Shown here: one piece after another, positions 5,085 through 54,990 of the stretch
Layout: the number at the start of each line of letters is the position of its first letter
Position numbering within the stretch: position 1 is the stretch's first letter
Assembly: GCA_040954595.2 (NCBI GenBank)
Contig: CM082577.2
Location: 1,550,001 to 1,614,000 of the forward strand
Direction: 5' to 3'
Length of the DNA stretch: 64,000 nt
From: Balanoglossus misakiensis
Lineage: Eukaryota; Animalia; Hemichordata
Notes under the pieces: model-generated
The model's input: only the letters and a program-made list of their open reading frames with translations
Database searches by the model: none
Told to the model about the DNA's origin: nothing
Translations under genes and position numbers: made by a program

Positions 5085-6530
5085 TTATGCAAATTTAATC
5101 ACAGTTACAATGGAAAATAGAAATCCAACCAATCACAGATGTTCACCTGCAAATTGGGCGGCAACATATCACAATGTTATCAGAAGCATGCCCTTTTAAC
5201 CATATATGGGCATATGTAAATTACAAATGATTGTACTCCTTTAATCTCATATATCAAACACAGCTGCTGGTTACAAAAGACACTCAAGTATTTCTTTAAC
5301 CCTTCACCAATACTTCACATGAAAAAATCGTACACCTTCTCAAAGTGTATAGTATAACAAAATACGTGGAAAGTTGATTCTTGGATGACGTATTACTACT
5401 AGTAATTGCACAGCTGTGGGAGTGTGCAAATGATTCAACAGTGAAAAATTTTGCATCTTTAACATGATAATGTCTGTAACATCATACACTACCTATAATG
5501 AGTTTCTTGAGCAGACATTGTTGCAAGTAACAATATCAAATCCTCATGATAAGAAAGGATGGTTAAATCAGATCCTGATTATTCCCCAGAGATGTGTAGA
5601 CACGTAGGAAAATGCAATCATTCTATACCTACCTCCTTAGTCACACCCTCGATTAAGACCAGCTACTTTTCATTGAAATTCACAAACATGATCAGTGGTT
5701 ACATGAATACACATCTATTGCTGAATCACTAACTCACTGGTTACTTGAGATGTACGCAATATTACATAAGCACATCAAAAAAAAACCTTTGAAATGTAAA
5801 TATCAGTTCTGATTAGATAAGTGTGTATGCCGACACCAAGTAGGTATGAAAGTGAAATCTTATTCATTAATTTCCATGACGATTGATAAGTTTTCAATTT
5901 TTTAGTACTGCAGAATATACGACAGTCTTGAGTAATATTATTTGGACAAACAAAGAATAATTCTGTGAGCAAAACTACCAAAAAGTACTAGCCAATTGCG
6001 ACAGATTTTCACTTGGGCGACCATGCAATAAAGTGTGCCACCACATGGTCGTTACCAATTAAAGGTGATTGTATTCCTTAAGTAAATGGTCGGAAGTATT
6101 CACTTCCTGGATGTAGTGATATCAACTGCAAGACTGTGGCAAACCAATTGTCACTTCTTGCTTCTAATACCTGGCAGACTCCATGCGCTGATATTTGACA
6201 AGGACAGACCACGTCCACCAGCAATGTTTCACCAGTATATCCTCAGGTAGGGTTTCTATGTTGGCGATCTCATCGTGGTCATTGAAATCTATGTAAGCCA
6301 TAAGAACGTCTCTGAGACTGAAAAGGATAAAAAAAGACAGATTTAAGCCACTGACTGTGATACTGAAGATCAATAGAACAGCTACCTTGTTATATGTTTT
6401 CGCTGTGAAGTGATTTGCGGCATATAGTCACATATGCAAATTTAGCTATGGTTACTATGGAAAGCAGAGATCTAGCCAATAACAGATTTCACTGGGTAGC
6501 CACCCAAAAAAGTGCACCACCACATGGTCA
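5085..6530 (+). repeat. Three diverged copies of a dispersed repeat (~5085-5165, ~5989-6050, ~6433-6530)
   Basis: Shared string atgcaaattt...gttacHatggaaa...(a/g)ccaat..acagat..tcac; the last two copies also share aaagtg..ccaccacatggtc. Confidence 0.55.
6164..6316 (-). CDS. RNF213: RNF213 terminal coding exon
   Basis: LRDVLMAYIDFNDHDEIANIETLPEDILVKHCWWTWSVLVKYQRMESARY*, preceded by a pyrimidine tract and AG. Confidence 0.85.
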   Translation of the reverse strand, partial: LRDVLMAYIDFNDHDEIANIETLPEDILVKHCWWTWSVLVKYQRMESARY

Positions 6531-9500
6531 TTCGAAGACTTTTGAACCATACAAGTAATCTTAACCCTTACACCACCATTGTTTTGTGCATTTGGTCCAA
6601 ATCCATTGTTTTCTATGGCAAAATTGGACCTCAAAAGAAGGAAATGGGGGTGAAAGGGTTAATCTAGTACCTCCAATTAGCAACATCTTCTTCTGCATTT
6701 TTCTCTTTTCTCAGTTCAATGGCAATGTAATGATGTAACTCATTGATCAATGAATCTACGTCTATATATCGTAATGCAGTCAGTAGATTTTGTTCTTGTT
6801 CTGGGTTCAGTTCCTCTCTGAAGTCATACAGGCTATCAAAAGGATCCTACGAAAAAAAAATCACAATTTACATGTGCATGAGGATAAATGCACAGTACAT
6901 GTATGTGTACTGTGCATATTCCCATTCTCTGTATTTGTCAGTTACATACACAACCCAATAGACTGTAGCACTGGCATTTGGGGGTAGGTTGAGAAAATTT
7001 GCCAATTTTGTTCTACATTTGAACTAACTTGGATAAAAAAAAACATAGACACCTGAACATTGAAACAATCAGCATTCTACACGTAGGTCACATAATGATT
7101 TCAACTTTAAAGGAAAGACTGCAGTTATGTTTGAAATTAGGGTTTGATTATATGAAACTTACCTGTGAGTTGAGTGAAAGCCTTCTTGCTCTCTCTACAG
7201 CTAACAGTTGCCACAGAGGTAAGATGTGTTTTAACTGGCATGGGTATCTCACCTAGAGGTAAAAATTAAAGCAATTGGTCTTTCAGGAGTACTGTACTCT
7301 GAGCCTTATTACGACAGAATATTCCAACTGCACAATACACTTGCTGCATTTAATTATGTAAATCAAACATGTTTTGTTTCAATATTATTTAAACGCTGTA
7401 ACCTTAAAGTGAGGATAGGCCGGCCTTTCATGGTGCAGCATGCACTGCCCCAATAACCCCTATAAAAATCTGTGTTTACAATACCTTCATCTCCTCTCTT
7501 TCCATCTTGAGAATGTTGCACAAATACTTGATGATTGGCATGTCTGGTTTCCCACCAGACGAAGCCAAGAAACCAATGGCAATGTCCAGACAAGCCAAGG
7601 AATCAGAGACTTCAGGTAGTGACCGCAACTCAGATAGGATCTGGTGTTGTATCACTTTGGACAATGGTTCCTGAAATCAAGAACATGTAAACGTATATGT
7701 CACACTTCCCATCTCTTGAGTGTTACTGCTTAGAGAATTGTTATTTCAGATGGTGCAGGCAATCTCAACATGAACACATTGTTTTGTGTATAAGATATTC
7801 TCAAAGTGGACTTCAAAATGGATGATGAATTTTTTTTATGAACTTAAAAGAAACACTGCAGGCACAGAAATTTACAGATGAACTGAAAACAAGTCCATGC
7901 TTTCCACAATGAAAAACAGAAATAAGTCTCGATGGTTATCGAGTTTTACATTTCATACCTGTGGGATTTTACTTTTCAATGTCTCAAACACTGCAGCGTC
8001 CCGGGAGTCTTGACGGAACACCAGCTGCTCAATTTTCCTGTGGATCTTTGCCTTGCTGCGTATGAATCTCTCTTCCAGTTGTCTCTCCAAGGACATCAGG
8101 TCATACTCCACAAGAGTGCCACGTCCGACTTCCAGGGAATAGTTGCAGTGAGACAGCACCATTGGGAGGAGATCCTTTTCTGGGTCATAGGCGATCAGAT
8201 CGGCTGGAGTCAGCTCACTGGGTTTGATCTCCTTATCACTAAAACATGAGTAAAGTTATACGCTGTTGAAGAGCTGTTGCTGCTTGGTCTACGCATGTTT
8301 GGTGATCCAAATTAATTTTAAACCCGAATGCAACAATCATGCATTCTTCAATCAGATGTGAAACTACTGATGATTGAACTTAAAGACAACATTCAATAAT
8401 CAACAACCCAGGATTGACAATTGTTGGTGAATATGAAGAATGAAAGAATAAAAAAAATACAAGGGGGAATGATGTACCTGATGGAACGCTTGGTTATGGC
8501 TTTGTATGTGTCCAGGAACTGATTCTGTGTGATGATCAGGAAGTCTACAAGAGCAGTTGAACAGACGCCGTCACCTTTCCTGGTGGGAAGTATGGTAGCC
8601 AGACTGGTGTTCCTAGTTATGGTTTGGTCACACAACTCTTTAGGGACAAACAAGCCACCTGTAGGTGAAGAGAGGTTACGGAGTTACACAGTTGTAGTTT
8701 ATGGAACAAGATTTTAACCTGCCATACTGATACAGTACTTTGATCATAGCCACATGGAAAATTAGACTAAGTCTAATGCTTTTAGTTCAAAGGTGGTTTT
8801 AAAAACTGTCAGTGAAACTTAACGATCTCTGATTATTTTGTTGAGAAAGTGTACTTTCAACTGTTAGAGAATCCATGTTTCGTTAAAATGACAATTGCCT
8901 ACGTGGGCAAGTTACACTTTTTCAAGTACACTTTCCTAAATCTGTCCTTTTAGTATTATTCTCTCACCACTGAATAAAAACAAACATCATTAACATACAT
9001 TTACTGTTTCTTTAATAATTTTGACTCACCATAGTTGAATACATCCTGTCTGACCAGATTCCACACTGTTGCAAAACTATTCATCAGCCGACAGTATTTG
9101 TCTCTGATGTGACCTGTGCATTAAAAAATGGATGAAGCAGAGTTTACACACCTGACTCACAATTCAAATATTCTCCACGATTCTACAAGAAGAAGTATTT
9201 GAGATCATTTTTTTTCCAGAGTGGATAGGCAGTAATTGTGTGCCACATGCTTGCAAAAAATTGAGTTATGCATATACGACAGCATGAAAGGATACATATG
9301 CAGTGAATTTCATTTTTCCAGGACTTGTCACGATTTTCCTGATTATTACACAGAACCCTGATGAACAGTGTCATTCCTAATATCAACACGTCATACAGTA
9401 GGAAAGCAAAAAAGAAGGATGTGCAAGATAGTAACATATACAGTATCGGTGACATTGGAATTGTACAATGATTCACAAAGACTCGATCGGCTATTACAGT

Positions 9501-12500
9501 TTTGTTCTGTCACTAATCCTCTAAAACCAGCACTTCTCACCTCTGGGCAGTCCATCCAGGAACTTCCCTATCTTCAAATTTGTAGCTTCGTGGAGGTCAA
9601 TATTTCTGTGGAATCGGTCTATCAAAAGTTGCTGTAATTGGATGATGTCTGGCAAGTACTTCAAGGCACGTAGAGTGTGTTCCTGCAGGAAAGATATTTT
9701 GCAATCAAAATCACCGTCTAATCAAAATCATTGTTAGTGATTACAATGCGAGAGGAGATCAGTGCTTCAGCTACTCAATATACATACATGTAGATGTGCA
9801 CAGACACTTCACTGTGCATCAGTGTAATGTGCCCTTCTCATTTACATACTTATTGTACAATACATACGGAAATATCTTGGATGATAGAGCTACAGGTTAC
9901 AACAGATGCATACATGTAACAGTAATATGTCTCGTCTCTACTACTGAAATATATTATTACAAGACATCAAAGAATCTGCTGTACAGATGATTCTCATTCT
10001 TTGTTTTCAGGGTGTGTTACTTGAAGACTGGACAAGTTGGAATTTACCCTGTTGAGGAACTCCTGCAGTATTCTACATTTCTTCTTGTTTTTCTTGGCAG
10101 CCATACTCTCTTGCAGAGCATGCGTCAGATGTTCAATAGTAACTCTCGATCTGTATCTCCACACTGTCGGGATGTTGTACAAAGAGTCCAAGGCCAGGTC
10201 TTGGGATGGAGGATCGACTTCATGCAGCAATTTCAGCAAAGGGTTGTTTCCAAGTCTCTTGTCATCATGCACCAGCTTGTTGGCTGTCTGAAGTTCTGGA
10301 GTGGCATTCTGTGACAAAAGCATTGTGTAAAAAAGATTTGATCATATTATCATTACTCTCAATTTTTTTATGAAATGGCACCAAAACTTCCAGTTTACCA
10401 ACCTGAATGATGGGATTGATGAAGTTCCTTGTGAATGTGTCCTCCCACTGATGTCTGCATTTCTTTGAAGTAAGCAGTGGGTTGAACTGCTCATGGCCTG
10501 TTGTGCAAATGACAAATTTAAATGTTAGATAGTTATTCTAGCTCAACACATGCTGTTATGGACAAAATTTGTCTGACAGAAGTCTATGATTTCAGATCAT
10601 ATTTGCATCAGCAAATTTTTGGTAATATTAGAAAATGGCAAGAAAATAAATATTTGATTGACAACTACATTTTAAAGGTCCAAACCTCACAGAAACCTGT
10701 GTTTATTTCAATGCCCTGATTTGATTAAGAAGACTTCTGTAAAAAAAGCCTTTCCCAAACGATACTGACTGAGTATTATGGCAAACACCTACCTTGCGGT
10801 TTGGTCGTCAACATTCTATGGAGAACCATGTGAATGAGCAGGGCCGAATCATCTACGCTCTTGCCACTTGCACGGGACAAGAGTTGAAGATCAAACTCCA
10901 GATGTTGCCATAGAAATTGCGGAATACCATTGGCATTCACCGTTGGGTGAATAACACCAACCAGATTCTACAAAGAGGAAATGTACTGATTTCAGTCCAT
11001 ATAATGTTTTTACATGAAAGTGATAAAAACTTAGTATTTCTATTATGTCCGGGAACTGTATTTTCTCTCTTTATAGTGAACACGGGTAATTATACATTAA
11101 CTTTCAGGAAAAAAACAAGCAAAATAAATCATGGAAAATTCTTAACAACTGGTGCGTCGTGGTATGAAAATTTGAACAGGTAATTGGGGTGAAAGTGTCG
11201 AGTAAATTTTAAAGACACACTAATTTTATCAGATGCCAACCTTTGGTGTTTTGGTCGCAGCTCCAATCATGGATGCATGCATCAACATCCTGACAATAGC
11301 AACAGCAACTGGAGACATCTGTCTCTCCGGGACAGGAATCTCGTTGTGTCGTCTTTCAGGAGCACCAAGTATGTGTCCAGTCTGTGTTGTGTCATGCCTA
11401 TAAATAGGGAGAAAAATACGTGAACATTTCATTCAAAATGGAAATGTCTGGATTCATGATAGATTCAACAGAAATGGAATGGCTGATATGGCTCTAACTT
11501 ACATGTTTGTTTGGTATCCTGCTATGTGGATTTTTCAAAGAAAGAGCTTAAAACAGCTACATGTAGGAGAATGAGTTATCAATATTGAAAACAGGGTCAT
11601 GTTTCAGCATGCCCTAAAACCAATAAATTTTGGAGAAAAAAATACTGTCAGTACGACTTTTTCCACTGAACCACAGTCAAAAGGTTTCCCTCCCCACTCA
11701 GACAATTTAATTTATGATTCATCTGTAGCCAAATCATCACGCCATACTACGAGAAAGATCTAAAACGGGTCCACTTTCTCTTTTAGCCGACATGGTTGAA
11801 TCTCCACCATCAGTATCCCATTTCTGTTTTTTACTTACGTTCTGGCCAATCTATTGCCCTTAGCAGCTTGATTGTAACGAACGCCTCCGATTTCTGCACC
11901 GCAATCCTTACACTGTCCAAGACCATTTGGTCTGCCACACTACAGCAACAACACAGAAAGCAGTGGTGAAAAAAAGAGTAATTTTTTCCACAAAAAATGC
12001 TATACTTACGTTCTAGCGATTTTATTGCCAGCAGCTGGTGTGTGGCTTTGTCCACCAATTTGTTGACCACAATCTTTGCACACACCGAGGCCATATGGAC
12101 GACCACACTGACAACGAGATCAAAGTAACGAAGAGTGATGCTAGGTGATTTTGAATTAACTCTGCATACTATTCTTGCTACAAATACAATGCGACTAGCA
12201 GACTCTATTGAGAATGCATGGTTAGCAGACTCATAGCCATCATTCATACACTCCTCATGTAACGTGACACAACATTTGATGATGGTCATCTGATATTAAG
12301 AGTCCCCAAGTCAATCATATGCTTTGCCCATTTTGGTCTGCTTAATATAATATTCTACCAGACATACATACTTGATTACCAGTGCTATGACATGAAATAT
12401 GTATATAAACCCATTCTCAAACACTATTGCAACACTGACAATCTTAAAGTACTTACATCTCCAATTGTGTAGGGGTGACCATTCGGACATTCTGAAAAGT

Positions 12501-15500
12501 AAAAAGAAAACAAATGAACTCAGAGTGGTGAATGTGAATTGGCCAGACAGACAGTACATGTACAGTGTAGTTTCAAACTTACCATACCACTGGACAGTCT
12601 CTTGAAGTGCTGCTTTAGCTTCTAACAGTAAATCTTCATGCATAGTTGGGAAGAAAGAATTCTGCAACAAAAAAGAGAAAATAACAACCTCTTTGTGATT
12701 AAAATTAAAAAATCTCCAATGATGAAAACAGGAGTAAGTTCAAAGTCAGCTTTGGTTTATAAGTTGAACTTTGTCTCCATGATTAACACAAAATCCATGC
12801 TGCTGTAAAGAATATTGCTTTTACTATTGCATATACCGTGAATGAACCTCATACAGATTCTTTCTTCATCCCTCACAAAGCATGATAAGCCTAAAGATGA
12901 CATGAGCGCACAAGTTAAAGTTCAAAAATCTAACAACACAACAAAGTAACACCAGCTAATGACATTGATGGGGTAACTAAGAGTAGCCTAACAACCGAAC
13001 TTACAGCCATGTTTTGTGGATTCTCCATCATGGTGATCAATGGTTGAACGGCATGATATCGACTGCAGCACCGCAACACAACCATAGTGTGAATCACCAG
13101 GGCTGCTACTGTACGACACAGGGGGCGCTGATCTGGTGTCACGGTCAATGTACTGCATTTACCACCTTGTCTGTTGAAGATGAGCTCTTCAGCAAAATCC
13201 TAGAAAAACATACACAAAATGTTCTTATGAGCAAATCATACTGAGATATGAAATTAGTTACATCTCAACTTTCCATGATAACTGGTTGACTTTGCACAGA
13301 TGATCGCATACTTCAATACAAATTTTGTTTAAGTAGGATCATATTACTTTGTTGTAACTTGGAGCAAAAAATACATTGTAGTATGGAATGACGACTGATC
13401 AGTTCAACGTTGACCTAATCTTTTGATATGAAATTCCGGGGATGAGAAGAACATGTACTAAATTTGATTTGCTTGTAATACTTACCCCTTGAGTAACAAA
13501 ATGGGACGACTTGATGTAAGTTACAAGCTTTTGAACAACCTGCCAAGACAATACACACAGTGGATTATATATCAGGAATTATGTAAAATTCAAAGTAAAA
13601 GCACCAGTACCTACTTGGATTTTGGCTATTTAATAAACATATTTGTTGTGTGTGAATGTCAAATGCAGTTTCTGGTTCGAATTCTTTGAGCATGATGCTA
13701 TACCCAGTATTTTTCATGGAGTAATTTCATTCGTCATGACATATCAGAACTTGCTTGTGTATGAACCCTTAACCAATTCTCAGGTGACACCATTAACTTG
13801 TTCTCAAACCCTAATGTTTTACAAACCAATACTTACATGGGCATCTGCTGGTGTCTGTTGTGAGCCATCAGCATACTTGTTTGCATGACACATGGTCATC
13901 TCCCTGTATATTGTCAGCAGTAACAGGTACTGCTTTTCATCATTGGATTTTATCCGATTCTACAAAGGCAAAAGAAAAGAGTGTGTCTTGCTACATGAGA
14001 AATTGATTTATATCTTGCAATTGTAACAAGTATCTCAGGTTCTTACCCTCAATATCTTGTCCACTTTCTTGAAGTCAGCACTAATCAGTGTTTCTGCCAT
14101 TGCTTCTCTGAGCTCCGGGTAAACATTCCCACACGTGACAAATCTGTCTGGTACAAAGGTGACCTTCAAAATGTACAGATGGCATCACGATTAATATTTG
14201 TATATTTGCAGTGCGTTCCAGTGACTGCATGCATTCAAGTTTTCTACTTGAACAGCTGCACATGCGTTTAACAATGTAACACTGGGGGGGAGATGTGATG
14301 AAATAGTCTGCATGGGAGTGTGTGTGTGTGTTTCATGAAAAGTATGATAGTAAAGTTAACAGTGAATTGCAATGGTCAGTAACACTGTCAATCTATCAAT
14401 GGTCTTGTTTCATTACTCTAAAGGGTTCAGACAGCATGCATAAATTGCCTACTGGTGCACTTACAACAAAATATACAGAGATCACTGTACACACAAATGT
14501 ATGATAATCAAAACATGTGTGTCTCCTTGATCTACAGCAAATGCCAAATACTAACAACTCACCTGTACATTTCCTTCAGGAGGCATAATCCAATCCAAGC
14601 GGGGATGTCTCACAACGGATTGCAGAGAGTCAGTCCCGTATCTCCGACACAGCTGCTTCACCAGGAATATTTTGGGCCACTTGGATCGGATGCTCTCACA
14701 GAACCTCCGTGTCATGTCCAGCAGTTTCCTGGCCTCTTTGAACAATTCCGGATGATCCTGTTGCTGTGTTGCATTCTGCTGGTCCGAACCCCCGAAGAAG
14801 AGATAGATCTGCTCGGCAGCTACAACCAGCCCAAACCTAGCGCCGGCGACCGAATCCAACTGTGACACGTTGAGGCCTGCCTGTTCTTGTTCGGGCTCAT
14901 GGATCTCAGGGTCCAATCTTTCTGTGGCACCCATCATCAAGGCCAGCTTGGCATCAGCTCCAGTCTGGATCAGGTGATTGTGGTGGGAATCCTGCAGTGA
15001 TTTAGAGACAGTTTAGGAATGGTCAATGCTTTCTCATCACACCTTTTGTGTGCTCTATGACTTTGCTTAAACAGACATGGGAGATATATTTAATTATTGT
15101 TGGTAACATCAGATTTTTATCAATAATTAGTTTGGCAAAAAAATCTACTTCCAGCAGTGCGATTATAAACATAAGAGAGACAAACTCACCTCTATGCACT
15201 GTATGCAAAGTAAGCACAGTTCAAGTACTTCCGCATCGGTCCTCATAAAGGTACGTGCTTCATCAAGGTAGATCTGAAGATGTTCAAAGACCTGTTCAAC
15301 GCTGAGGAAAAGAAATGAAACACATTGTTACCAGTTCCATGGTAACTTAAACTACAGTTTTTACTCTTTCAGAACTTTCATTATTTTATTTGGCTCAATA
15401 GATGTTAGATCTGGTGGGTGAATATAACACTAGGTTTATTGAAATCCCACTTTGTTATTGCTTGGTCTGATAGTGCACTGAAACACCCTGCTGTGCATTT

Positions 15501-18500
15501 TTAATTTCATGTAAAACTTTTCTTTTTGGGGGGCAAAAGTAGTGGTGTTTTCACAGTCATCATCTCACCTGGACCGCAGCAGCAGCTGTAACAAGAATGA
15601 TCTGACAACTGGGTTTGGATCAATGCAGTCTTCTTGGAACGGTGTGAATCCTCTGGTTTGGCGTTCTTTCTTTTCAGCATGTCTGGTCACATAACCCATC
15701 AGCATGGTGATCAGTTCGGGTTCCGGTGGCTCCCCTTCTGCAAAGCAGTATCTGGATACGAGCTCCATGAAGAAAGCGTTGCACCGACGACGGAAAGCAT
15801 TGTGAGATTCCACTGCCTCTCTGTAACATTCAATACACACATTTATTATCAGTCTCTGAAGGAACGAATGTATCACAGACCCAGAAAGAAAGTGTTGTTG
15901 TTTAAATCTTGGCAACTAAAATTATACACATCATAGATTGTTGTGGGACGTCATTCCAGTGCTCATGTACCGGTAGATACAGCTGAACAATACAATACAA
16001 TACAAATTACATGCATCTGCACCTTTTCAATGAACTGATTTCATCTGAGCAACAGGGTTTGTCAAACACGAATAAATACATGTTCATAGGAATATGCCTA
16101 TTTCTTAGGTCAGTGTTCATGCATGGTGCTTTAGAATTCTATGTTTCACCAATTGTACCGGTAGTGTATGTACACATACCTTGACTTTTGCGAACTCTGA
16201 ACTCTGAAATTGCGATCAACTGGGTCTTTGCATTTTGGACATATCCTCTCTCGTACTTTAAACCACTCCTTGATGCAGTTAAGGCAGAACACATGTTCAC
16301 ATGGCAACGCAACTGGTTCTTTGATGGCTTCTTGACATACCTCACATTCATGGATACCATATCTAGAAAAAAAAAAAAAACATTTGACTATGGTTACCCC
16401 TAGGAACCTGCAAACCAAATTTCAAAGCAATGGCACTAGTAGTTCCAGAGAAGATTTAGTTTTGACCCCAAAAATAGCAAAATTGCCCAAAACATGCAAA
16501 TATGTACATTTCACTACACTTTAATAAATTTTACTTACGGTAGGTCACCACCAGGAACCTGTATATTACCAGTCTACTTTGCTCACTCTTGCCTATACAA
16601 CATTGTAGATATTCAGTGTTCTGAGTTCAGTACTTACCTGAAGTGTTGTCTACTTGCAGTTTCATTACAATTCTTCAAGACTTTCTCAATGACTTTCATG
16701 TGCTTCACGCATTTCAAGTTAACATGTTCACCAAGAGCCTGAAACAAAATCACAGTTTATGTTAGAGCAGCGTCACTGACGCTTACATCATCAAACCAAA
16801 TATGTTACAATCAAATCACATCTGAAGCATTCACTATCACTATTCACTATCTGGTTTTTAGAGAAAATGATTGCCTTGAGAAAAATATATGAGAAAAAGT
16901 TTCAGACTTTCACTTTCAAGACATATACGACTATGCAAATGATCTAATGGTGACCAGGACACTCACCAAGCTGAGCTGATTGGTCTTCTTGATAATCTCC
17001 TCACCAACTTTACTGTCTGGGGGACATACATGGTCAACAAACAGCTTCAACATACATATACGTATCCACAGTGGTCTACAGCAAAACAAACAAAAGAAGG
17101 AAATTCATAATGACTGAGATTTGACAAGACTTTCTTTTTACTAGTACTGTAATGCATTGAGGACTTGTCGTAGGTTAATTAGAACAGCATCCCGGACAAC
17201 TTCCAGTTTGCTTTTTCACCATCAATGCATTCTGTTTCATGGACAGTGAGTAACATCAGCAATGTGAAGTAATGCTTTTAGAACATATTTCATCGTTCTT
17301 TAACGCAGCTAAAATAGTTGATGCAGTGCACCGTGGAATAACCAGTAGCAGATTTATTTAGCACTTAGATATTACACATACTTTTGCCAGGGCTATGCAC
17401 TTCTGTGTGCAAGGCTTTCAACGAGAGTAATATTCCCATACTGCTTACGCAAGTGACTACAACTTACCTACATTGCTGGATGTAAACACTACTTATGTCA
17501 CCATACACTTTTCCATCAGTATCTTGCTTCTCAGCATCTAGAATCCTTTCAACTATTGGTCTGGCATCTTGTACTCTCTTCAGCCACATCACCCTATCAT
17601 TGACGTCATTCAACTGGTCTCTTTGAGGTGTTAGAGTTTCCAGAAGAGCCCTGAGAGCCTTGGCATCCAAGACCTATGTGAATGAGGGAGTTGAACAAAG
17701 TGTGTTGAGTCAGTTTCTTGTGTGTGTTCAGTGACTAAAATGAAAGGCGATAATATTGTACAAATCTTTGACAAATGCTTTCAAAATATGGCAGAAAATA
17801 AAGCAAAACAAAAGTTTCAGGTCAGTTTTGTTCAATGAAGGTTATGAAGCCGGTCATGCCATCACTAATTTCAGTAAGCTTTAGCATTGCTGGAGAAAAA
17901 TCGTCTTGGGAGCATTTCAATGAATATTCTTAGCTAATGGTCAGGATGGAGATCTTCGCTCGACAATTTTTTTACAAACACATACAGACACAAAATGCAT
18001 GTAATAATGTGTGCTTGCCAAAGGAAAGCCACTACACCAAACAGAACTGAACTATTTTAGAACCTTTTTTCTTTCACAGCTGCTGTAAAATGATACTTGC
18101 CATTTGCTGTTCTTGCTCAGCTTCCCAGACCTTCACGTGTGGAGGCAACAGTCTGACAATCTGTGAGTAGCCATCAAGGCGTCCGTGTATACGGTGGTAC
18201 GATACATGAATACCGGGAATGTCTAAGCTGAATTGAGCAGGGTCATAATCCTCTGCAATATGTTGTTCAAGGGATGCTGTCTCTATCGCTCGACAGACAA
18301 CCTGCAAGAATTACATTTTTGAAAGTGACCAATATTACATAATGGGTTTAAAAACAGCCTTTTTAAAGATGAAGTCCAGTCCAGCTGATTTGTACATAAT
18401 TTGGTAGCTTTAAGGTCACTCTTTCAGCAAAAAATAACATTTTCGCCATGTAGAAGTCCAGCTATTTTTTACAAAAAAGAAGGAATGTTGGCAGAATTTC

Positions 18501-21500
18501 CAATATGGCGTTTACTGTAATCTGAATCATGGGGAAAAAGACGCCGGGACCAACTTGGTGTGGAGAGCCAAGGGAACCTATGTATCAGATTTCACTGAAG
18601 GCTCTCTGTATTTCCAGCAGTTGGTTAAGCATCACATCCACGAACAGGAGCATGGCAAAATGTTTCCATTGCTGGCTCATTTCTATCGGTGTACTACATA
18701 TTTTGGATACACCCATAATTTTGATACAAGCTTTATAAACCTATAAAAATTACTTGTATAATACCTGATGCTCTTCTTCATCACGTGCTCTATACACCAT
18801 TCTCACAAAGTCACTCAAGTAGCACCGCATGAAATCCTCCAACTCTCGCGGTTCCATCTGGCTAAGCAGAGTCCGGGAAAGTTCTGACTCAACAAGCAGT
18901 CTTTCCAAGGTCATCTTGACAGAACCTACGAAAACATGAAGCAGGGACTCTGGTTAAAATCTGTATCCAAAATGACAGTCACTTCAACAGTACACGTCAG
19001 CTTTTGGTGGCCTTTGTTATTTAATTACACTGTAATAGGATGAAGAGAATTACCAAACAAAATTGCTTCACATATTTTTTTCTGAACAAAAGACAGTTAT
19101 ACCTTTCATACTCAATGCACTTTCCATTATGTCATTCACATAGTTTTTGATGACACTAGAGAATGGACAGAGGCACTTGAAGTGGCTGTTGTTGACACCA
19201 GTGGAGTTGACTGGAACAGCGTCCCTTGGTGTATTCTTGACTGGAGACAGGAAGGATTCATATCTCAACACTGATAAGTTGGGGTTTCTGAGCAAGTCCA
19301 GCCACAGTCTGTACACCCAGCTGTTAGGAGGCGAGTTTTTGATCAAGTCCAAGTTATCATTTCTGTCCGAGAAGGCAATTACTTCCGCCAGTAGTGGTGT
19401 CACTGTGCCAACCAGACTCTGCCAAATGGCTCGTCTGTGAAAAGACATACATGTTAGGTTAAATCTCAAGGCAATGACTTCCTAAGAGAAACAGACAGCT
19501 AAAATTGCTGTACAAAATTGCTAGCACATGAGACCTGTTACAATTTGAAATGTCATGTGAAACACACACAAAAAACTTCTTGATTTGACTCGACTGAGAA
19601 ATGTCTTGTAGAAAAAGGAAATTAACTTTCTGGAAAAGGCTGATTTCAGATTGCTTTTAATACATTCTGTAAGTAGTAGTTTGTTATCTTAGCAAGTACT
19701 ATCTTTATTTCTATGATGCTCTTGTATAGGTTCATCAAAGTGCTTAAATGCTTTCCTACCGAATCACGAAATCACCCAGCATCAAGTTTACCTGAATGTG
19801 CCATGCACTTGAACCCGTTCTCCAGTTACAGCTTCTCTGCTCAGCCAAGTGGAGGCCATGTCACCTGCCCTCTCATCCTTCTCCTTGAGTAGCTGACAGA
19901 TGCGTTCTTTCAATACACTCACAAATGTTGTATCTGGGAAGAACATGAACAGATGGTAAATTTTTAGGTGAGCAGGACATTTGACAAAACACTGACTATG
20001 TGTATTTCCAGTTCATTGTAGGCTAATCATCAGTGGCTATATACCGGTACAGGAGTTCAATTAAGCTTCACTTCACAACTATTTCACATTGAAAGAATAC
20101 ATGTATCTGGGCTAATGCAACCCTTGTACTTACCCTGAGAGGGATCAGTCTGTTTGAACAACTCCAACACAATTTCAATCCTCTCAGTAGATCTTTGTGT
20201 CCTGTCCTCATCATCTTCCAGCATAGCAGTGGCAGCGTGAATACAGTTTTTCAGCAGAGCACTGGTGTTCAGAAGAGCAGCCCTGTTAGGTACATCGTCT
20301 GCATCTTTCCCTTCTGTGACAACACTCCTGGTGCAACTTGGCACTTCTTGGGCTCGACCACCCACATTCAGTGTTTCCAGGAGCCTCTGAGTCTCAAGCA
20401 TCTGAGAATCTTTGCATGGGAGTACCTCTGCAGCTTCATTTCCCTCTGCTTCTCGGGGTTCTTCTAAGTCCATTGCATTCTCTGCATTAGCATCAAAATT
20501 ACAGAATTTTAATTTATTTTCATGCTTCTCTGTGTTCTTCAAAGTTCTTTGCATTCTCTTTATCAATATTGCAATTATAGAATTCATTCTTAGAATGCCA
20601 AAACCATGCTCAAATAAATAAATCTTGGAGTTATACACCTGTACATACGTATATCCAAGGTTTTGATTGGACAAATCTGATTCGGTTCTTGAAATGCAGT
20701 CTCGCACATTTTTCTCTGTGACATGGCTTTTGATTTCCAACAATCTACACCTCTTTCAAATATTGTAGGTGTATACAATTATAACGAGAGTAGATTGGTA
20801 CATGAATATCTTAGCAGGACTCAAACCTAACTCACTCTTTTCATCTCCGCCTATTTCTTCCATATGAATATCCTCCAATACTAATCCAGATGCCCCACCT
20901 TCAGCCAACTCCATATCTTCCACTTGATCCAATGGCTCACGAACATCTGGGCGGACATCCACCATCTCGTCCTTTCTGTCTGTTGTAATGTCACTCTCAA
21001 AGAGAACACTGACTTTCTGGTTTTGTAGGGCAGTGATCTGCGGCAGGTTGGCATGCGGAGGTCGAAGTTCATCAATGTGAACAGACAGCCATTTCCCACC
21101 TGGGCACAAGTTAAAATTTTGATAAAACAATTATGTTGGTTGTAAAAATGGAAAATTACATGAAAAAAATGTTAAAACGTCATAATTATTAATGGAGCAG
21201 GCAATTAAAAAGAATGTAGCTTTGTGGAACTTCATAGTTTGGTGAAAGATGGAATTCACATGCACCACAGCATAAACACTATATCATGTGAAAAGCAACA
21301 AAAGAAACACACATTTTCCTATGTATGCACGCACCGTACCAACATGCATGTACATGTACAAGTACAGCTCTCACATGATTTCTTCAACATCTCTGGGATT
21401 GTGAGTGACAATTTTCACTGATATCAAACAAAACATAAGGGGAAAACAACTCACCTTGCAGCCCATCAAAACAGCCTCCAGCGACTCTGGGAAGTTGAAT

Positions 21501-24500
21501 AATGAACACTACATGAGCAGGTTGCCATTCTTCTTTCACTGCTTGCTTTTTAGCTTGCGCTCTCTCATCTTGGACAATGTACCTGGAGCATGCGATCAGG
21601 TTGGTGTTCTCATTGCCAGCATCACACTGAACTAACAGGAGCCTCTCCATCTGATTCAGGTTGGAATCATGGAAGAATTCTCTGCAGGAAGAGATACATA
21701 AAGGTATGGATGTAGACCGCTACATGTTTTCATGTTATAAATTTTTTGCATAGGGAATCAAATATGCCATTTCTATATGAATTTCAGTACCTACACGAAA
21801 TACAGTATACTCAATGATGCTTGTGAAGGTGAGTCACTTCCAAGAAAAAAGAAACAATTCATTACACTTCACCTTTAGGTGTATACATTGAAATTTTGCA
21901 ATACATATTGGAATGTGCTTATTTTCAAGTGCACATACATTGGGCTGTACCTGGATTAAAATACCATTGTACCACCATTGTTAGAAAGTAAATACCGAAC
22001 ACAGGGCAGTATTATGATCCTGCCATGCATTAAGACTTTACCTGACTTTCCTGGTGAACTGTTGTTCGGTTTGGAACTCCTGCAAGAACACGCTGTTCTT
22101 CACCAGGACTCTTGGTGCAAAGCCCAGACAGGCAGCCAAATCCTGCTGATCATATCTGGAGAGTAGTCTGGAGTGAGTTGTCACCTACATGTACAAGTAA
22201 ATGTGCAGAGGGTAAGATGAATGCAAGCTGGATGCTGAGGTACAAGTGCTGTTAAGGTGTGTTACATGTGGAGCTTCAAGACCCAACAATGCATCCGTGT
22301 ACACTGCACTGTATTTTTAATGTAGTGCAGTGTCTCTGCTGTGTATACAGACCTGTGTCACAGATCTTTGCCATCCTTGCTGACAAAAACTTATTTCAGA
22401 GATTTGTGACAGGGCCTACACAGGGACAAAGGTGAATGTTCTTCGAAAATCAAAGTCTTCAACCTTTTCTCACATTTGAATAAGGTAAAATTGTCTCAAT
22501 ATTGAAATTCAAAATGGCTTTCCATAAGTTCTGGAAACAAACAAACAAACAAACAAACAAAAATAATATGGCACACATTTGTTTTTAAATTATACATTAC
22601 CTGAGCAAGAACACCAGTCATCTTTGCCTTCTGCTTGGCCAGGTTGATTTGGTGTTCAAGATACCCAGCTAAAGAGTCATGCTTCTGTTCAGCGTTGTAC
22701 TTTTGCCACAGTCTCTCAGCTTCATTGCCAAGTCCAGATTGTGAGAGACGAGCGACTGCATCGGGTGTGGCACACTGCAGCAACAGATCTTGTGACCGTT
22801 GGAACACCTGCAAGAAAAACAGAGGTTCATGGAAACATGCAAGCAAGGTGTAGACTGAACGTACATGTTTTACAGATATTTTTGTACATCTCTGTGGTCT
22901 TTATAAATTTCAATTAACAATTTTTCTGTCATGCATTAATTAAAAGCTAATTATTATGTGCAACCTGATGCTTTCTCTCACTGCTTAGTGATTAAAGGAG
23001 TACGATCACTTCTTATTTACATATGCCCATATATGGTTAAGTGGGCTTAGCTAAGTCTTTGAACAATCATGTCATGGAGGACTTCTTCATGTGGCCACAC
23101 AAGTGAATATATCTATGGATCATGGTAGCTCTTAATAAATTTGCATAGATGACCATAGACATGTACTTTTAACTCTGGTAACATTAATAATTTTTCTGAC
23201 CAATGAAGACTTCGACCCACCTTTTGGCGCCAATCTTCATCTGCTTCATGCTGGTTCATCTCAGAGCAGACTTGCAGAACAATAGATGCTATTGTGTCGT
23301 TGTTGAAACCAATGAAAGCATCCTCTACCTTAAATTTATTTGATGGTCTGTAAAAGTTACCAAGTATGAAAATTGGAACTTTAGAACTTGACTAAATATT
23401 GCTCTCTGACCAATGTAAGTGTACTAATTTTGGGAAGTTTATCATATTTTTAAGGCAGTCACATTTCTGCAAAATGAGGTGCTGGCCCTTATTCGCTTTG
23501 CAAAAATACATGGCAACATGCACTTATTTTCTTGAGCAATATGTTTATGTACTTTCATTACCGGGTGTTGACTTTCTAATATTTCTTAAATTTTAACTTG
23601 ATAGCATTGTCAAATAGAGAGAATTACTGCACCAAATTTGACGAAATCATCTACACCTTTAAACAAATCCCAAAAAAGAAAAGACTTCTTTGCAAATGTT
23701 TTGCTTTTCTCAACAATACTGTACTGCAACATACCTTTGTCTCTGTTGTAACAAGCCCTGGTGAATGGTGGCAAATCTTTCTACCCACTTGGCTAATTCT
23801 TCAACAACTTTCAGTTCATCTGGTGTCAACATGGTGGTCATGGCGAGGAAGTGCTTCTCCAGGCGATTGATGAGTGGTATGGGAAATCTCTCGTACACAA
23901 CTTCCTTGTCTGCTACCACAATCAACCTATCATATGGAAAATTGTAGTTGTTTATTTCTGTACAAAGTATTTATGAAAAGTTGTTTATCTTATTGGAAAG
24001 TTCACATATCTCTTTCACCAGTTTTATTATGTATATTTGTGTGTGTGTTAATGAAGTACATTTGTGTGTGTTAATGCCAAGATACAAAGCATAATAACAT
24101 ACCTGAAATCACTGTGGACTCTGCACTTGACTCTGTGAGTTCCGAGACCCAAGTCAACGTATCGCTGACCGCCAAAGAACACATAATACTGATTCAGTGC
24201 GTCGTACAAGCTCTCGTACAGGTTTTCAAGATTCAGCAACACTACAGTACGCCCTGTTTCCATACACACTTTGATGCGGTTGATGTTGCGACACACCTAA
24301 ATGCACAAAATTGAACGAATTAATACACCATTTTCTATGGTGAACTTTCTAGGAAGAGTAAGAAGTGCTATGCACAATCTATCAAATATATGCAACCAAA
24401 AGCACGATTACACTGCTAAAAGTTTTTTATTAAGATTTCAAGTACATTTTCATGTAAAATTACTCTCAAAGCCCTGGGGCTTATATTTTTCTCAATAATA

Positions 24501-27500
24501 GCAGTTGTAGATTTGGCATCCAGACCCTATTTTATTATAGCACAGAACTTTTTAGACAATTTTGAAATCAAACAAAATTACAGGTTTTCATTGGGTGACG
24601 GGACGAAAAAGTGCACCACCGTATGTCAATTAGAGGTGACCGTATATTTTAAGTGCCCTCTGAAGAAAATTTTCTACCTACCTGTGTGTATTCCTGGTCT
24701 TTGGGAAAGCTACTTCCAAATATAATCACAGTATCCTCCATGCTCAGCAACTGCTGCTGCAGTATTCCCAGAGCTGCATAGTTCTCAGTCAGAACCAACA
24801 AATATCGGCTTTCACTATTTTAGAAACACACACACACACACATCAAAAAAATTTAAAGGCACATAAGCTGCAACTGGATAAAAAATTAAAGTTTTAAATA
24901 ATCTCATATAAGCTTTTAATTATGTCCATTAAATGCTATTTCATGATAATATATCAAGCTCAACACTTATTTATGACAAAATGGCCAAAAATTAAAGAAA
25001 AACGAAAATTCCTGCAATTTTTAAAAAAGTGCAATATTGCAATGAAAAATGAAAATCTGATGTCTCAGTGGTGTACATTTACTTCCATGAGCTCAAGTGG
25101 ATGAGATCATGTTTTGTTTATGAAGTTTCGCAACCGGAAATGCGACATTTTCATTGTTTCTTGCATTTTCCCACGGTGGCGGCCATAATCGCTTGCGGCA
25201 AAGCTTTATTATTTATCTGGTTAAAACTTGCATATGCACTCATATTTAGGGTTTATAATGCTTGTCTATTGTTCACTGCCTTCATCTGCATGGACTAATG
25301 GTAGTGCAGTTTTAAACAAAAAATATGAAAATTATCCCAAAAGTTACAGCTTACGTGCCTTTAATAAAAGTCTGTATAAGTGGGTATTCTGTTATCTTTC
25401 CTTTCATTACAAAAATGACATATATCATAATGGGTATTACACGTTGTTTGTTCATACAATCCAAACAAGTACTTTTCAGCAAACATATGAATAAATGCAA
25501 TGCTTGTGAGACACTTTCTGTTGTCCTACATGTATATGCATGATATGCTCATACACACACACACACACACACACTGACCTGTCCATATCAAGAATCTCCT
25601 TGTCAAGTCCTTGAAGACTGGCTCGGATGAGAGCAGCTGCACTGCACTCAGGATCATTTGGTCGCTGAAAAGAACATAAGGTCATGTTACATTAGGCACA
25701 AACAGTTAAACACACGATTCTCTACCAAAGGATGAAACAATTACTGAAATAGCAAAGACATATTTACTTTATCACTGACCATAATACCAAAAGAAGGTAC
25801 ACATAAAGGGTGCTATGTTCATGTTGAATTATAAATACAGGAGGTTGACGACTGTATATGTGTATGTAAGTGTGTGATGCTATATACTCAGAAGACTGGC
25901 CCAGATGAAGACACTTACTCTTTGAACGTCTCTGGTCACATGGTTCTGAAGTCTGTCAAATCTTCTGACAGGGTCAATCTGATCGTCCAGGCCCCCGAAA
26001 TTGCGCCTGATGGCATGTTCTAGCTGGGGCCATGACGGTGGCTCATCAGATGCCTTGGAGAATCCATACACCATCTTGACAAGGCTGTCGTTTTCAATCA
26101 TAAGAATGTTGTCATTTTGGAGGAAATTTTTCTCTTACTGGTTTAAATGGTAAGTATTCACGTGGTTGAGGCAGCCATGCATATTGAAATGATGGAATTT
26201 CAAGAGATTGTCACGGTTCACATTGATTTAGCAGTAAACTGGTGTATGTAGACAGTTTTTGATAATTTCCTTCAGATTTGCAAATATGGTTTAATGTAAA
26301 GCAACACACACATGAATTGTCATACAGTGATACTAAAATATCTCAATCAATGCTAAACTAGAAAATACTGTGTTTTAAACTTCATATGTGCCATCAGTAC
26401 ATACCTGTAAAAATCTCTCAAACCAAAGAATTCCTTCTTTTGATCTTTGTAAAGCTGCAAGTAGCCCTTTGCTAGAGCAGGGATCATGGGATCAATGCGA
26501 CTCAAGACAATTTCATCTGTTGAGCAAATGCCTCTGCAAAAGAAAACCACATTTTGATTTCATTTTTGTTCTAAACATGATGGCTTTTCTTTGCTCTCAG
26601 AATTGGAGAGAAGTGTTCATATTAAAGACAAATGGAAATTCACAAGTACAGACCACTAAGGAAAGTATGGGCATATGCCCATGTGACTAAAACACAAAGT
26701 AAACACAATGCAAAGATCCAAATAATGATGTACAGCAAAGGATAGTCAACTAACATGGCACTGTCCTTCAGTTCTTCTATGTCAGGCACTCCTCTGGATA
26801 CCAGTATTCCTCTGTTCATCTTGGCTGGATCCAACGCCCAGTTGGAAATGCCAATGAAGGCCACTTTCTTATGTGGTGGCGGATTGTCATCATCATCGCA
26901 GCCATATTCCAGCAGTGGATGCAATGTCTGGAAGACAATTGATCAACATGACTACACTGTCTCTTTGGTATGAAATAATTCTGATTAAAAGAATGATATA
27001 AAAGTTCATAATTCCTACCTTCAGCGGCATCTTTGGTGAGTCTTCCGCTAAGCCAACTTCATCCAAAACCACAACAGAAACAAAGCGATCAAGATCTTTG
27101 CCTTCTTGGAAACGACTGCATTGTCGGAATGTGCCCACAATGCCCTCTGGTGTTGACAGTGGACTACACTGGTATGACACCATGTGCACCTGTAATTACA
27201 AATTATATTTTCGTTAATGAAAATATCATGAATATTTTCCATTATACAATTACAGGTCTTCAGTTTGAGGACTTTATCGCTATCAGTATGCCAAATATCA
27301 ATGTACTTCAGACACTTACACCATACATATACTGACTTAGGCTTGAAATTTTTAGCTGTGTGTTAGAGACCTCACCTGCTTAAACTGTCTGAACAGATCA
27401 CTAGCAGCAGCGTCTCCTTGCATGGCATCAGCAACAATGGTCTTGGCCAGGGACTTAGAGCTGCCAGGTTTACCAACCAAAAACAGAGGTATTCTCAGCT

Positions 27501-27854
27501 CTATGCACACCACCATCATGAACACATTCTCCTTCAAAGCGGCATTTCTGGCAATATTATTTCCAAGACGAAGCTGATCAAGAAAAACATCTTGGCATCT
27601 GGAGGATGAATTACCAAATGAAATCAAATGAAATTTACAGTGAATACAAAATACAACTGTTTGTACTGGTTACATTACAAATTCCCTGCCCAGGAGTAAT
27701 ATAAAATCATAAGTACATCATAGAGCTTGAATGTTAGTCAACCTGGCCTGTACATTGAATTTACTACCATTGAGAATTTCATGGTATAGGTATTAGTAAC
27801 ACCCTGAATGAGTGAATGAATAAATGAATGAATAAATGAATGAATAAATGAATG

Positions 27855-27889
<35 letters not shown>

Positions 27890-30800
27890 GGTCTCCAACT
27901 TAACTGACCTTGTTATTTCTTCCAGGATCTGGTCTGCACCACCAGGGACATCACATGGTTCTTTGAAGTAGATTTCAATTTGCTCCCTATAATTTTCTCT
28001 CTCCTCTTGCAAGCAAGCATGATAACAGACTCCAAGCGCCAGAACTAAGGCTAAGGTCAGATTATCCAGTGGCTGTAAGGATAGAAGGACAGGCATAAAC
28101 AAAATTGAGCAAGAATAATAAGTATGGAACACCTACATGTACATACTGCATGCTCTTCAAGATATAAAAATAAATACTGGCAAATAGTATATACACATAT
28201 TGATTGGCCATGAGGGTGACAGCATACATTTGCGTCCCCTCAGTACTGTGAGTCACCCAATACAGTCTGTTTCCCTCGGCCTTGCGTAGTGTTCCGCAAT
28301 GAAAATATGAAAGCATTATGTGTGATGGCTTGGATTTATAGCTAAATGGAAATTAAGAATCATAAAAACATGGATGATAATTCTACTTGCGGTACCTCAT
28401 ATGTCTCATCCTCCTCGTCATCGTCCTCATGCTCTTCTTTTGCCGCTTCTTCCATCAATTCAAAGATTTGCTCATGGTTCAAAAACCAGACCAATACATT
28501 CATTGTTCTCTCCACGTCACGCAAGCTGACAAAACTGCATTCGTTCTAGATGATAGATTAGACAAGTGAGGTAGGGTCAGTCCAGCTTACCATGACTTAA
28601 ATATTCAGATCTTTAGATTATCCAGGTACATACATGTACTGGTACATGTAGGATGTCTTACTTTGAATTGTCTTAAATGTCATGACATATACCATGAATA
28701 ACTTTGATGTATACAATTTTAACTCTAAACAATGCACCAAAACTGAACAGTGTGAAAATGTTCGTGGTCAGTAACACCTGGTAAGATAGTCATCAAAATA
28801 TACCTGAATTGTTCTCACTTGAAATGATTTATGAATAACTGTTTTACCTTCCTGTCTCTCATGAATCTCTGTGACGCTGCTAACACAGAGCTTATGACTT
28901 CTTCCCTTCCTGCTGGGATCTTCTCTGAGTTCACCTGTAACACATGATATGATATAACATGTATGTACCGGGTATGTATCGTATATATGTGTACACAATG
29001 TACCAGTATGTGTGCACATGCATGAACACAATGTGTGTTGCAAATTTACAATATGCCATTTGGATTACTTTTGTGTGTAGAAATATTAGTGTTCATCTCT
29101 TGATTATCACCATGTCAATTTTTTCACAGGTGAACTCACATATCTTGCCACAATCTGTTTGATGTAGAGTTCTTCAATTTCACTGCTGAGCTGACCAAAA
29201 TCCCAAACCAATGGTAACATACTTGGTGGTAAGGCTTGTACTCTGTACACCAACTGTCTCAGAGGTATACGGCCTGTGTGAAAAGCAAAACATCAGCAAT
29301 CTAAAACGCATGTTCCACTAGATAATATGAATTTGTCGAGGTGTAACCAGTTGGTGTTATTGATAGGTTGAATGTAATTATAAAATCAAAGCTCAATACA
29401 TAATAAAGCAGAAATTCTGAAGTATACAGTACTGCTACTGTACTATAATTCAGCATGCTTTAAATACATGCACACTTACCAAGTTTATCATCTGTTTGTT
29501 CAGCCTTGATGTGGTAACCCAAACCAGCTTTCTCAAGATGGTCTATCATTTCATCTGTATGTCTACAATAAAAACAAAATTTGTTTGTCTACAATAAAAC
29601 TAAATCCATCCTGGGTTTTTTTAAGTATATCTCTAGGTCTGATTAATTTGCATAACAATTCTTTGAATTATTCCTGTCACAAGTTAAAGTAACATGCAGG
29701 TTTGTACCCACCTTCTGTAGGGATTACAGGCTGCAACAATTTTCAGTGCATTTGTTCCATGGTGCAATGGTTTACCATTCATGCGTCTGTCACACATGAT
29801 TTCTTTGATAAGACCAATGGCTTCTGTGGTGTTTGCTTCGTCAAAGAACAGAACTGTGTCCACCTTGTGTTTCTCCTTGTTCAACTTGGCCAGCCTCTCA
29901 GCTTCGTTGACTTTCTTGACAATGTCGCTGGCAGTTGTACCACCGTGGACCTTTGATGGGCAATCAGAATTACTGTTGAGCATTCATAGAAGTCCGTGGA
30001 ACACAAACTGTCTATTTTCTGATGTATCTGAATTCTCGCGACAAGAGGTACATGGTACCTGTATTTTCAGATTTTAACAGGTGACTGTATACCTTGGAAT
30101 TAAAATCAACATTGGTACTGTGTAACTGACCAAAACAGACTTATTAAGTACAGGTATGAAGTGATAATCTGCCAGCAAAAAACTGTTAATTAAATCTTTA
30201 ATGTGTGAACCAATGCAAATATACATATGTTAATCACCAACAATGTTCTATACAATGTGCATGTACATGTAAGATTTCAGAAAGTATACCTCACCTTCAT
30301 TAATATCATATTTTTAGGTCCATCTGCAGCAGCTATACCAGCCTGCAACTGACACATAAATCTGACCAGTCTTGTTTTGCCACATCCTGTCTCTCCCATG
30401 ACAATCACTGGGATACCACACCTGTGCAAAAATAACATTATTCCATGATATATCCTTTCTGTGAAAGTCTGCCCAAGTTAGGCAATTAATACTTCAACAA
30501 CGCCCCGAGATAAAATGAACCTCACTTCGCACTGCAGGATCACTTAAGCACTTACGCCAAATACCGTGCTTGTGTGAAATTATTTATCACTGACTGTCTC
30601 AGATTAGAACACCATATCTTGACCCAATGCACATTTGCACCAGTGTAAAGATGTAGACCATTCTGTAAACTGAGGAAAGACCTACCGGAATCTCATGTGT
30701 ATGGCCAGTATCTTTTTGACATTGTCAGTGGTGAGTTCATAGGTATCATCAGGATCGTGTGCCCACTCAATCCCCATCACCTGGCATAACTGTCCAATCT

Positions 30801-51800: not shown

Positions 51801-51997
51801 CAAAACTTTTTCCCGGCGGAAATTCTACTTCAGGTATTAGTAGTCTTCCTTTCACTGGAGCAGATGATAGGGGAACTTCAACTTCAACTTTGTATGTAGT
51901 AGGTTGCTGTCTGTTCTGTGAAACCACTTCTAGCTTCTTGGTGCCTTGATCTTCTGGCACAGTTGACCTGTTTTGAACTACTTCATGCTCCTGTTGT

Positions 51998-52029
<32 letters not shown>

Positions 52030-52326
52030 TTCTTGCAGTGAAGGCATCTCTTTCGTCACTGATGCACCACTTGCCAGTCTTTCCATTTCATCCTCATCAC
52101 CATCCCTTTCACCAGAATCAGAAATAGACATCCTTTCTCCTTCATCTTCTTTTTCTTTTTCTGATGTTGCTTCTTGGTCTGTGACAGCTGAAGCTTCTAG
52201 ATGCCCTTGGGTGCCATCTTTATTTGTTGCCAGCTCTCCTGATTGGACAGTCTCATCTGGTTCCTTACTTGCTTGTGTGACTTTAGGTGATGATGGTGTA
52301 TTGCCTGATACACTGTTAAGCTGAAG

Positions 52327-52392
<66 letters not shown>

Positions 52393-54411: not shown

Positions 54412-54990
54412 TGTCTTCCCTGGCAGTGGTAGTCACCTGCAATTCTGAATAATAAATCAAATCGAACTCAGGAGTCAGGCTGAATTATCTTCAATTATTA
54501 AAATATATGGATGGTTAGATATATATACTTGTAGTGTGACAATGAAAACTGACTATCTACTTGTGACAAAGTGCTATATGGTATGCATGGTACGTGTGAA
54601 ATTTACCTTTACAGTGGACAAATCTGTCACATGAACATTTCTACATGTACATGCACTGCGTCATGAGTCCAAAGTACAACTCTAGGCTCTTCATAAAATA
54701 CATAGAATGCCTGTTCATTCTGAACCCCAATTATGTTGAATTTTTATTCCGTTTTATACAAAGGCTGGGCGGGACCTGGCACAGACCCTCCCAAGTAAAT
54801 TACCTATTACCCAGAAATGCACAGCATAAGCATTGTCTTTTGACATTGAGTACCAGGAAACAAATCTAGGTGAAAAGGTTACAGTGAGTGGGCGTAGTGT
54901 TTGAGAGGTGTTCACTGGAAATGTTGATCAATTCCTACTCAACTTTATTCATGTACATGTACCTATGCAAAATTAATTTAATGTTCGAAT

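Follow-up and report, generated by a model that had tools for sequence, protein, structure and literature searches.

The analysed window, a stretch of 64,000 nt of Balanoglossus misakiensis DNA, contained a multi-exon gene for RNF213 (mysterin) on the minus strand (6164..54400), the 5' end of which is approximate and was set from open reading frames only. Full-length RNF213 proteins of an oyster and a bird gave collinear tblastn matches from about 44,880 down to 6,185, which covered 3393 of 5638 and 3231 of 5182 residues, respectively. One Walker A motif and two Walker B motifs were located by pattern at 30396, 29854 and 27075, and a RING-finger exon of the C3HC4 type was found at 16180..16362 on the minus strand (Pfam PF00097, E=2.5e-11), with boundaries taken from the gene model. 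This model comprised 31 exons and encoded the C-terminal 1666 residues free of stops; the product was 78.5% identical (1312 of 1671 columns) to the RNF213-like protein X2 of Ptychodera flava. The nearest relatives of the gene were found in P. flava and Saccoglossus. The marks of RNF213 were all observed, namely a giant protein with a dynein-like AAA core, a RING followed by an RZ finger, and an intact C-terminal region. The gene model also picked a GC-AG intron at approximately 18101-17673 on the minus strand. Farther upstream, a 915-codon frame rich in Gln, Pro and Asn (51223-53967, minus strand) probably forms the N-terminus of this RNF213; two CxxC motifs occur in the frame that comes before it (54163-54432, minus strand). 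A similar stretch of about 60 nt was present twice in opposite orientation (36344-36406 and 6596-6658) and is probably a small dispersed repeat. Exon fragments of the adjacent gene, at 61081-62349 on the minus strand, bear a putative resemblance to COQ7/clk-1.

The RZ finger of this RNF213 is distributed over several short exons, all on the minus strand. A 79-nt exon (12583..12661) encodes the N-terminal helix of the domain, and a 35-nt micro-exon (12491-12457) provides the first and second zinc ligands in the motif CPNGH; both are likely common to all isoforms. They are followed by two homologous exons in tandem, exon A (12107-12010, 98 nt) and exon B (11939-11839, 101 nt), separated by an intron of only 70 nt (11940..12009); the 30 introns of the C-terminal model are all longer (87-612 nt). 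The catalytic Cys is the first codon of both exons (12107-12105 in A, 11939-11937 in B) and aligns to the RNF213 Cys; both exons further supply the CxxC ligands. At the residue 21 positions after this Cys (+21), exon A encodes His (12044-12042) and exon B encodes Tyr (11876-11874), and exon B is longer by one residue. Each exon lies between an AG acceptor and a GTAAGT donor, ends in AC, and is entered in phase 0 and left in phase 2, and the first base of the next exon, a G, completes the split codon. This downstream exon (11241..11397, 157 nt) is likely common to both isoforms as well. In-silico splicing gave an open frame for the micro-exon joined to A or to B and the next exon, and inclusion of both exons or of neither led to a frameshift with stops in the next exon. 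The coordinates, translations, splice-site ends and phases given for the two exons in the preliminary description proved exact, and the frameshift that it expected from double inclusion was reproduced.

The zinc-ligand set CxxxH...CxxC was complete with either exon, with CxxxH contributed by the micro-exon and CxxC by A or B. Against the ZnF_RZ-type profile PF20173, exon A alone scored 36.2 bits and exon B alone 31.1 bits, both above the Pfam gathering score of 27. A profile scan in six frames found no third copy of the exon in the window, and self-comparison of the stop-free minus-strand segments between 6,000 and 55,000 identified A/B as the sole tandem coding duplicate of the gene. The pair shows the features of mutually exclusive exons: homology in tandem, equal phase, canonical splice sites and a frameshift on double inclusion. 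It was also observed that reading through the donor of A (12009-12006) or of B (11838-11835) on the minus strand meets TAA at once; retention of either intron would terminate the protein just after the RZ finger, which may be a by-product of the phase-2 GTAAGT donor.

The peptide segments encoded by the two exons are identical at 21 of 33 aligned residues and differ at the remaining 12. Within the first 19 codons, 15 residues were identical and 11 of these were specified by different codons, which, like the length of the 70-nt spacer, was as counted before. Over the 32 aligned codons, synonymous differences clearly exceeded nonsynonymous ones (pS 0.59 and pN 0.24; dS ~1.15 and dN ~0.28; Fisher p=0.0025). 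This contrast indicated an old duplication under protein constraint, as had been proposed from the codon pattern, and not a haplotype or assembly duplicate. Duplication in the assembly or between haplotypes was ruled out as the source of the pair by the dS of ~1.15 together with the occurrence of both exon types in P. flava.

In P. flava, two RefSeq predicted isoforms, X1 (XP_070580813.1, 1671 aa) and X2 (XP_070580814.1, 1670 aa), differ in this exon only. The two have in common a prefix of 979 residues, the last of which is the catalytic Cys, and a suffix of 659 residues. X2 has His and is of the A type; X1 has Tyr and the extra residue and is of the B type. The variable segment closes with Met in X2 and with Thr in X1, and both codons end in G, which fits the same phase-2 junction. 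X1 and X2 are automatic XP models, and the annotation of the P. flava gene is fragmented; alternative isoforms in RefSeq normally need transcript support. The exon identities were 28/32 for A and X2, 25/33 for B and X1, 24/33 for B and X2, and 20/33 for A and X1. The orthology of B and X1 is marked by the common Tyr-Asn, the extra residue and an Arg in the exon tail, with a thin margin of identity over B and X2. Exon B diverged faster than A around the loop, and its identity to P. flava (76%) was within what the remaining exons showed (59-95%, median 80%). The Tyr was kept between the two B exons though four of its six nearest neighbours differ. In a neutral simulation of 20,000 runs, B remained this intact in 9%, 0.6% and 0.005% of runs at 0.15, 0.25 and 0.5 set substitutions per site, respectively, so neutral retention of B is improbable beyond about 0.25 substitutions per site. 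Both exon types occur in P. flava, whose protein is otherwise 78.5% identical, and the two must therefore be old and conserved. The homology of the exons, their incompatible frames and the presence of one P. flava isoform for each exon bear out the earlier idea of a mutually exclusive type of pair; absence or disruption of B in close relatives had been named as grounds for refutation, and the B type is present in P. flava as annotated isoform X1. We consider it highly likely that both exons A and B are used.

The choice between the exons may have a steric basis. Two branch-point-like motifs were predicted in the A-B intron, with their A at 11979 and 11967, which places them 31 and 43 nt downstream of the exon A donor, and a distance below 50 nt from donor to branch point is the steric criterion for mutually exclusive exons given in the available text of PMC5740500. 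Double inclusion is likely blocked by this short distance, and transcripts that escape the block would be removed through the frameshift. A hairpin in the A-B intron was marginal (z=-2.2, with 6 of 200 shuffles folding as well). Control of exon choice by RNA structure was rejected, since the 401-nt region folds no better than shuffled sequence (z=-0.44), and inverted repeats considered as an exon-choice device look like chance.

In human RNF213, zinc is bound by C4505, H4509, C4525 and C4528, and C4516 and H4537 are the proposed nucleophile and general base (PMC11549300, as far as its available text goes); the numbering C4516/H4537, which the preliminary description had given, agrees with this source. 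From the catalytic Cys to +21, exons A and B both aligned without gaps to mouse and human RNF213, and the position of the mammalian catalytic His was occupied by His in exon A and by Tyr in exon B. The claim that the Tyr of B stands at the conserved His position was therefore upheld by an ungapped alignment. The general-base His of the RZ finger is present in exon A and replaced in exon B, and exon B is, judged from its residues, a variant of the canonical Cys/His RZ site. The accessible part of PMC12075652 calls the His of RNF213 a highly conserved general base and reports that autoubiquitination of the mouse His4483Ala mutant was 'lower (< 10x)' but not abolished, in contrast to mutants of the Cys or the ligands, which abolish it. 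For ZNFX1, the portions available report that His1881Asn abolishes the transthiolation route (10.1101/2025.09.05.674436) and that the N-terminal helix of the RZ finger is predicted to bind ubiquitin (10.1101/2025.10.14.682297). The RZ fold consists of a helix and a small beta sandwich; a structure model of the P. flava Tyr form showed a helix and four strands at low confidence (mean pLDDT 62.9), with no PDB match at E<=0.001.

The Tyr at +21 is not peculiar to this gene, as could have been supposed from the preliminary description. In a pooled and de-duplicated set of 243 parsed RZ motifs, +21 was His in 196, Tyr in 40 and another residue in 7, with no Arg or Gln, and the rows of the search profile (3 Tyr, 2 His and 1 Ser) may inflate the share of Tyr. 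The upstream CxxxH was present in all 40 Tyr motifs. A word-index search gave 124 RZ matches (His 92, Tyr 22, other 5, unparsed 5), and the best 150 of 1903 matches in a 50%-identity library comprised 112 His, 18 Tyr, 4 other and 16 unparsed rows, the latter resolved by eye into 9 His and 7 Tyr. The carriers of Tyr included Saccoglossus, Glandiceps, Branchiostoma, Pinctada, Pecten, Potamilus, Mytilus and Dendronephthya, together with a helicase-type protein of Cetraspora, a barbet and many birds of the tyrannid group. Full-length bird proteins of the Tyr type had 5182 and 5475 aa, and Empidonax and Pitangus were among the full-length carriers. Among the matches retrieved, Tyr thus appears as a recurrent second state of RZ fingers and as the dominant alternative to His. 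No further isoform-level His/Tyr pair was found among the members listed for 20 further clusters, three of which had 15 members listed out of 17-23. A metagenome scan was set aside, as it returned two loci from 69 candidates, both 38% matches that look unrelated. Other hemichordate RNF213 copies carried Ser (P0007), Tyr (P0008/P0010, Saccoglossus), Ala (P0013, a P. flava paralogue) and Tyr (P0014, Glandiceps) at +21. The Saccoglossus exons share the tail Arg with B, and the Tyr type may be ancestral with A derived, or an A exon may be unannotated there. An unnamed RNF213-like protein (P0024, with cluster members P0201-P0207) was observed without the loop that bears +21 but with the Cys and the zinc ligands kept.

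FastTree trees were built from the sequence downstream of the RZ finger, using rows with at least 250 residues there, and required at least 11 His/Tyr changes among 94 rows and at least 14 among 119 rows, on trees whose deep branches are long and uncertain. Tyr was involved in 11 of 14 changes at +21 and in 7 of 135 changes at 15 control columns with a His majority. Two of these control columns were also two-state (His/Gln), and a two-state column alone is therefore no proof of two chemistries. A possible correlate was found at the RZ +4 residue, which is Tyr in exon A (12095-12093) and Asn in exon B (11927-11925). By raw counts, Met occurred at +4 in 113 of 196 His-type motifs and in 1 of 40 Tyr-type motifs. 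After correction on the trees, the covariation amounted to 7 pairs versus 1 (median p=0.07) under a grouping made post hoc, and to p=0.63 for Met alone. It is suggestive that a bulky +4 residue goes with His and a smaller one with Tyr.

Collectively, we favour the reading that the two tandem, frame-equivalent exons are likely spliced one or the other and yield two likely active ligases, which are predicted to differ in the final hand-off of ubiquitin; we give it a probability of about one half. Both forms keep the four zinc ligands and the Cys, and both should accept ubiquitin from the E2. Any difference should sit in the second step of the reaction. There the His form would behave as mammalian RNF213 does, its His being a general base able to activate amines and also weak hydroxyls (lipid A, sugars). 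Tyrosine is a far weaker base at neutral pH, and the form that carries it would react more slowly with hydroxyls and favour lysine or self-ubiquitination. Such a shift of acceptor is expected because of the precedent of HOIL-1, in which His510 is dispensable for loading and needed for hydroxyl acceptors, and in which His510Ala loses O-linked and gains Lys-linked activity (PMC11962058, in the text available). In that case, the exon chosen in splicing would set which output an innate-immune ligase delivers. Among the points against this explanation, the ZNFX1 His1881Asn result (10.1101/2025.09.05.674436, partial text) indicates that loss of the His can inactivate an RZ finger; moreover, with 12 of 33 positions unlike between A and B, selection may have acted on a difference other than His/Tyr. 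The earlier statement that the isoforms differ only in the E3 active site consequently stands in part: the catalytic His is replaced by Tyr, and the other differences extend beyond it. In its widest form, the idea would be that RZ ligases have two catalytic states, Cys/His and Cys/Tyr, which set hydroxyl (bacterial LPS) versus lysine acceptors, that RNF213 switched between the states on at least 14 occasions (in molluscs, soft corals, amphioxus, hemichordates and birds), and that acorn worms hold both as a splice switch; we regard this generalization as possible but doubtful.

The rival readings divide over what the Tyr does. Tyr might merely substitute for His, being aromatic and having a hydrogen-bonding atom, in which case both exons would be used and the isoforms would matter through other residues of the loop, which might for example touch the substrate or evade an inhibitor made by a pathogen, or would be nearly equivalent. 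The change from His to Tyr takes one base, Tyr is kept with all ligands intact in many tyrannid-group birds and in scattered lineages, and the faster divergence of B around the loop would fit such a role, as would the positive selection on mammalian RNF213 reported in the available text of PMC11549300. Equivalence of the two residues nevertheless fits poorly with the experimental importance of the His in mouse RNF213 and ZNFX1. Tyrosine is a poor base at neutral pH, the Tyr of B was kept while most of its neighbours changed, and non-equivalence of the two states is suggested by their being kept side by side in a single gene of two species. We consider this reading somewhat unlikely. Alternatively, B could be an attenuated or trapping isoform in which the Cys is loaded and discharge is poor; it would then serve as a brake, or as a scaffold of weak ligase activity that can nonetheless coat pathogens. 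The strong loss of activity without the His in mouse RNF213, its abolition in the ZNFX1 RZ route, and the finding that RZ-dead human RNF213 still coats Toxoplasma vacuoles (PMC11549300, available part) speak for it. An attenuated form has no need of Tyr specifically, yet Tyr dominated the changes at +21 and Arg and Gln were absent among the 243 motifs, and full-length bird RNF213, whatever its copy number, carries Tyr. The recurrence of Tyr, including in these full-length bird proteins, favours a working second state over a dead decoy, and the attenuated form suggested in the preliminary description is accordingly less likely than a working variant and, overall, unlikely.

The remaining two readings fare worse. 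If B were a relic that is never spliced in, or a frameshifting poison exon, the P. flava X1 model would be a by-product of annotation; the premature stop on inclusion of A and B and the lower conservation of B are compatible with this. The frame, the splice sites, the three cysteines and 76% identity are, however, kept between species whose proteins differ by 21%, and neutral retention is improbable as simulated above, which makes this reading very unlikely. It has also been considered that Tyr acts as a second nucleophile, with ubiquitin passing from a thioester on the Cys to an ester on the Tyr before it reaches the substrate. A Tyr in the position of the His would adjoin the catalytic Cys (PMC12075652, in the text available), and the strong preference for Tyr over other residues would be explained. 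Against the relay, the accessible text of a review gives no known tyrosine-ubiquitin oxyesters as of 2022 (PMC9527308), and we regard it as highly improbable. The preferred reading remains that of two working ligases with different acceptor preferences.

The A/B pair is a real, conserved feature, which extends two known kinds, RNF213 and mutually exclusive exons. The RZ finger of mammalian RNF213 (mouse C4462/H4483; PDB 7OIK, 8S24, 9JW1) has the same domain order (AAA core, RING, RZ) and the same ligand spacing, whereas in the present gene the catalytic half exists in two tandem exon copies, one of which has Tyr in place of His. The P. flava X1/X2 isoforms contain the orthologous exon pair in an automatic annotation without functional comment. 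HOIL-1, an RBR ligase, has like the RZ finger a transthiolating Cys/His site, and without its His it modifies lysine instead of hydroxyl acceptors (PMC11962058, available text); its fold is unrelated and its substitution an engineered Ala, in contrast to the natural, probably splice-dependent Tyr described here. The ZNFX1 RZ finger (C1860/H1881) shares the Pfam domain and the Cys/His pair but resides in a helicase, the RZ route reportedly depends on its His, and no splice variants appear in the parts of that literature available. The human catalogue of mutually exclusive exons (PMC5740500) and OGDH 4a/4b (PMC7969005), in their available portions, likewise present tandem paralogous exons with lengths that are not multiples of three and short donor-to-branch distances; unlike those, the exons here contain the nucleophilic residue of an immune E3 ligase and exchange the residue that works with it. 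In the literature searched, mostly open-access, no description was found of the RNF213 exon pair or of Tyr-type RZ fingers, and no biochemical work on the latter turned up; the published alignments in PMC12075652 (Supplementary Fig. 11a) and 10.1101/2021.05.10.443411 (Fig. 3c) might show Tyr variants. About one-sixth of the RZ fingers retrieved have Tyr, including those of a large bird clade, which the literature, in its available parts, was not found to mention.

This pair bears on how RNF213 chooses between O-linked (lipid A) and N-linked (lysine) acceptors. Natural isoforms that are alike except in the 32-33 residues around the Cys and the residue paired with it allow a direct test of what +21 does. 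If the preferred reading is true, alternative splicing swaps the active site of an innate-immune enzyme, and the two isoforms form an isogenic natural pair for the choice of RNF213 between lipid and protein. The same contrast was observed between paralogues in Pecten maximus, in which two similar RNF213 genes of one scallop cluster carry Tyr (P0037) and His (P0152). The RNF213 of the tyrannid group, with Tyr at the general-base position and Val at +4 (P0176, P0179, P0075, P0082, P0114, P0121, P0174, P0175, P0178, P0180 and P0215), provides an easy vertebrate test object, and Cephalopterus, which is nested in this group, has His with Met at +4.
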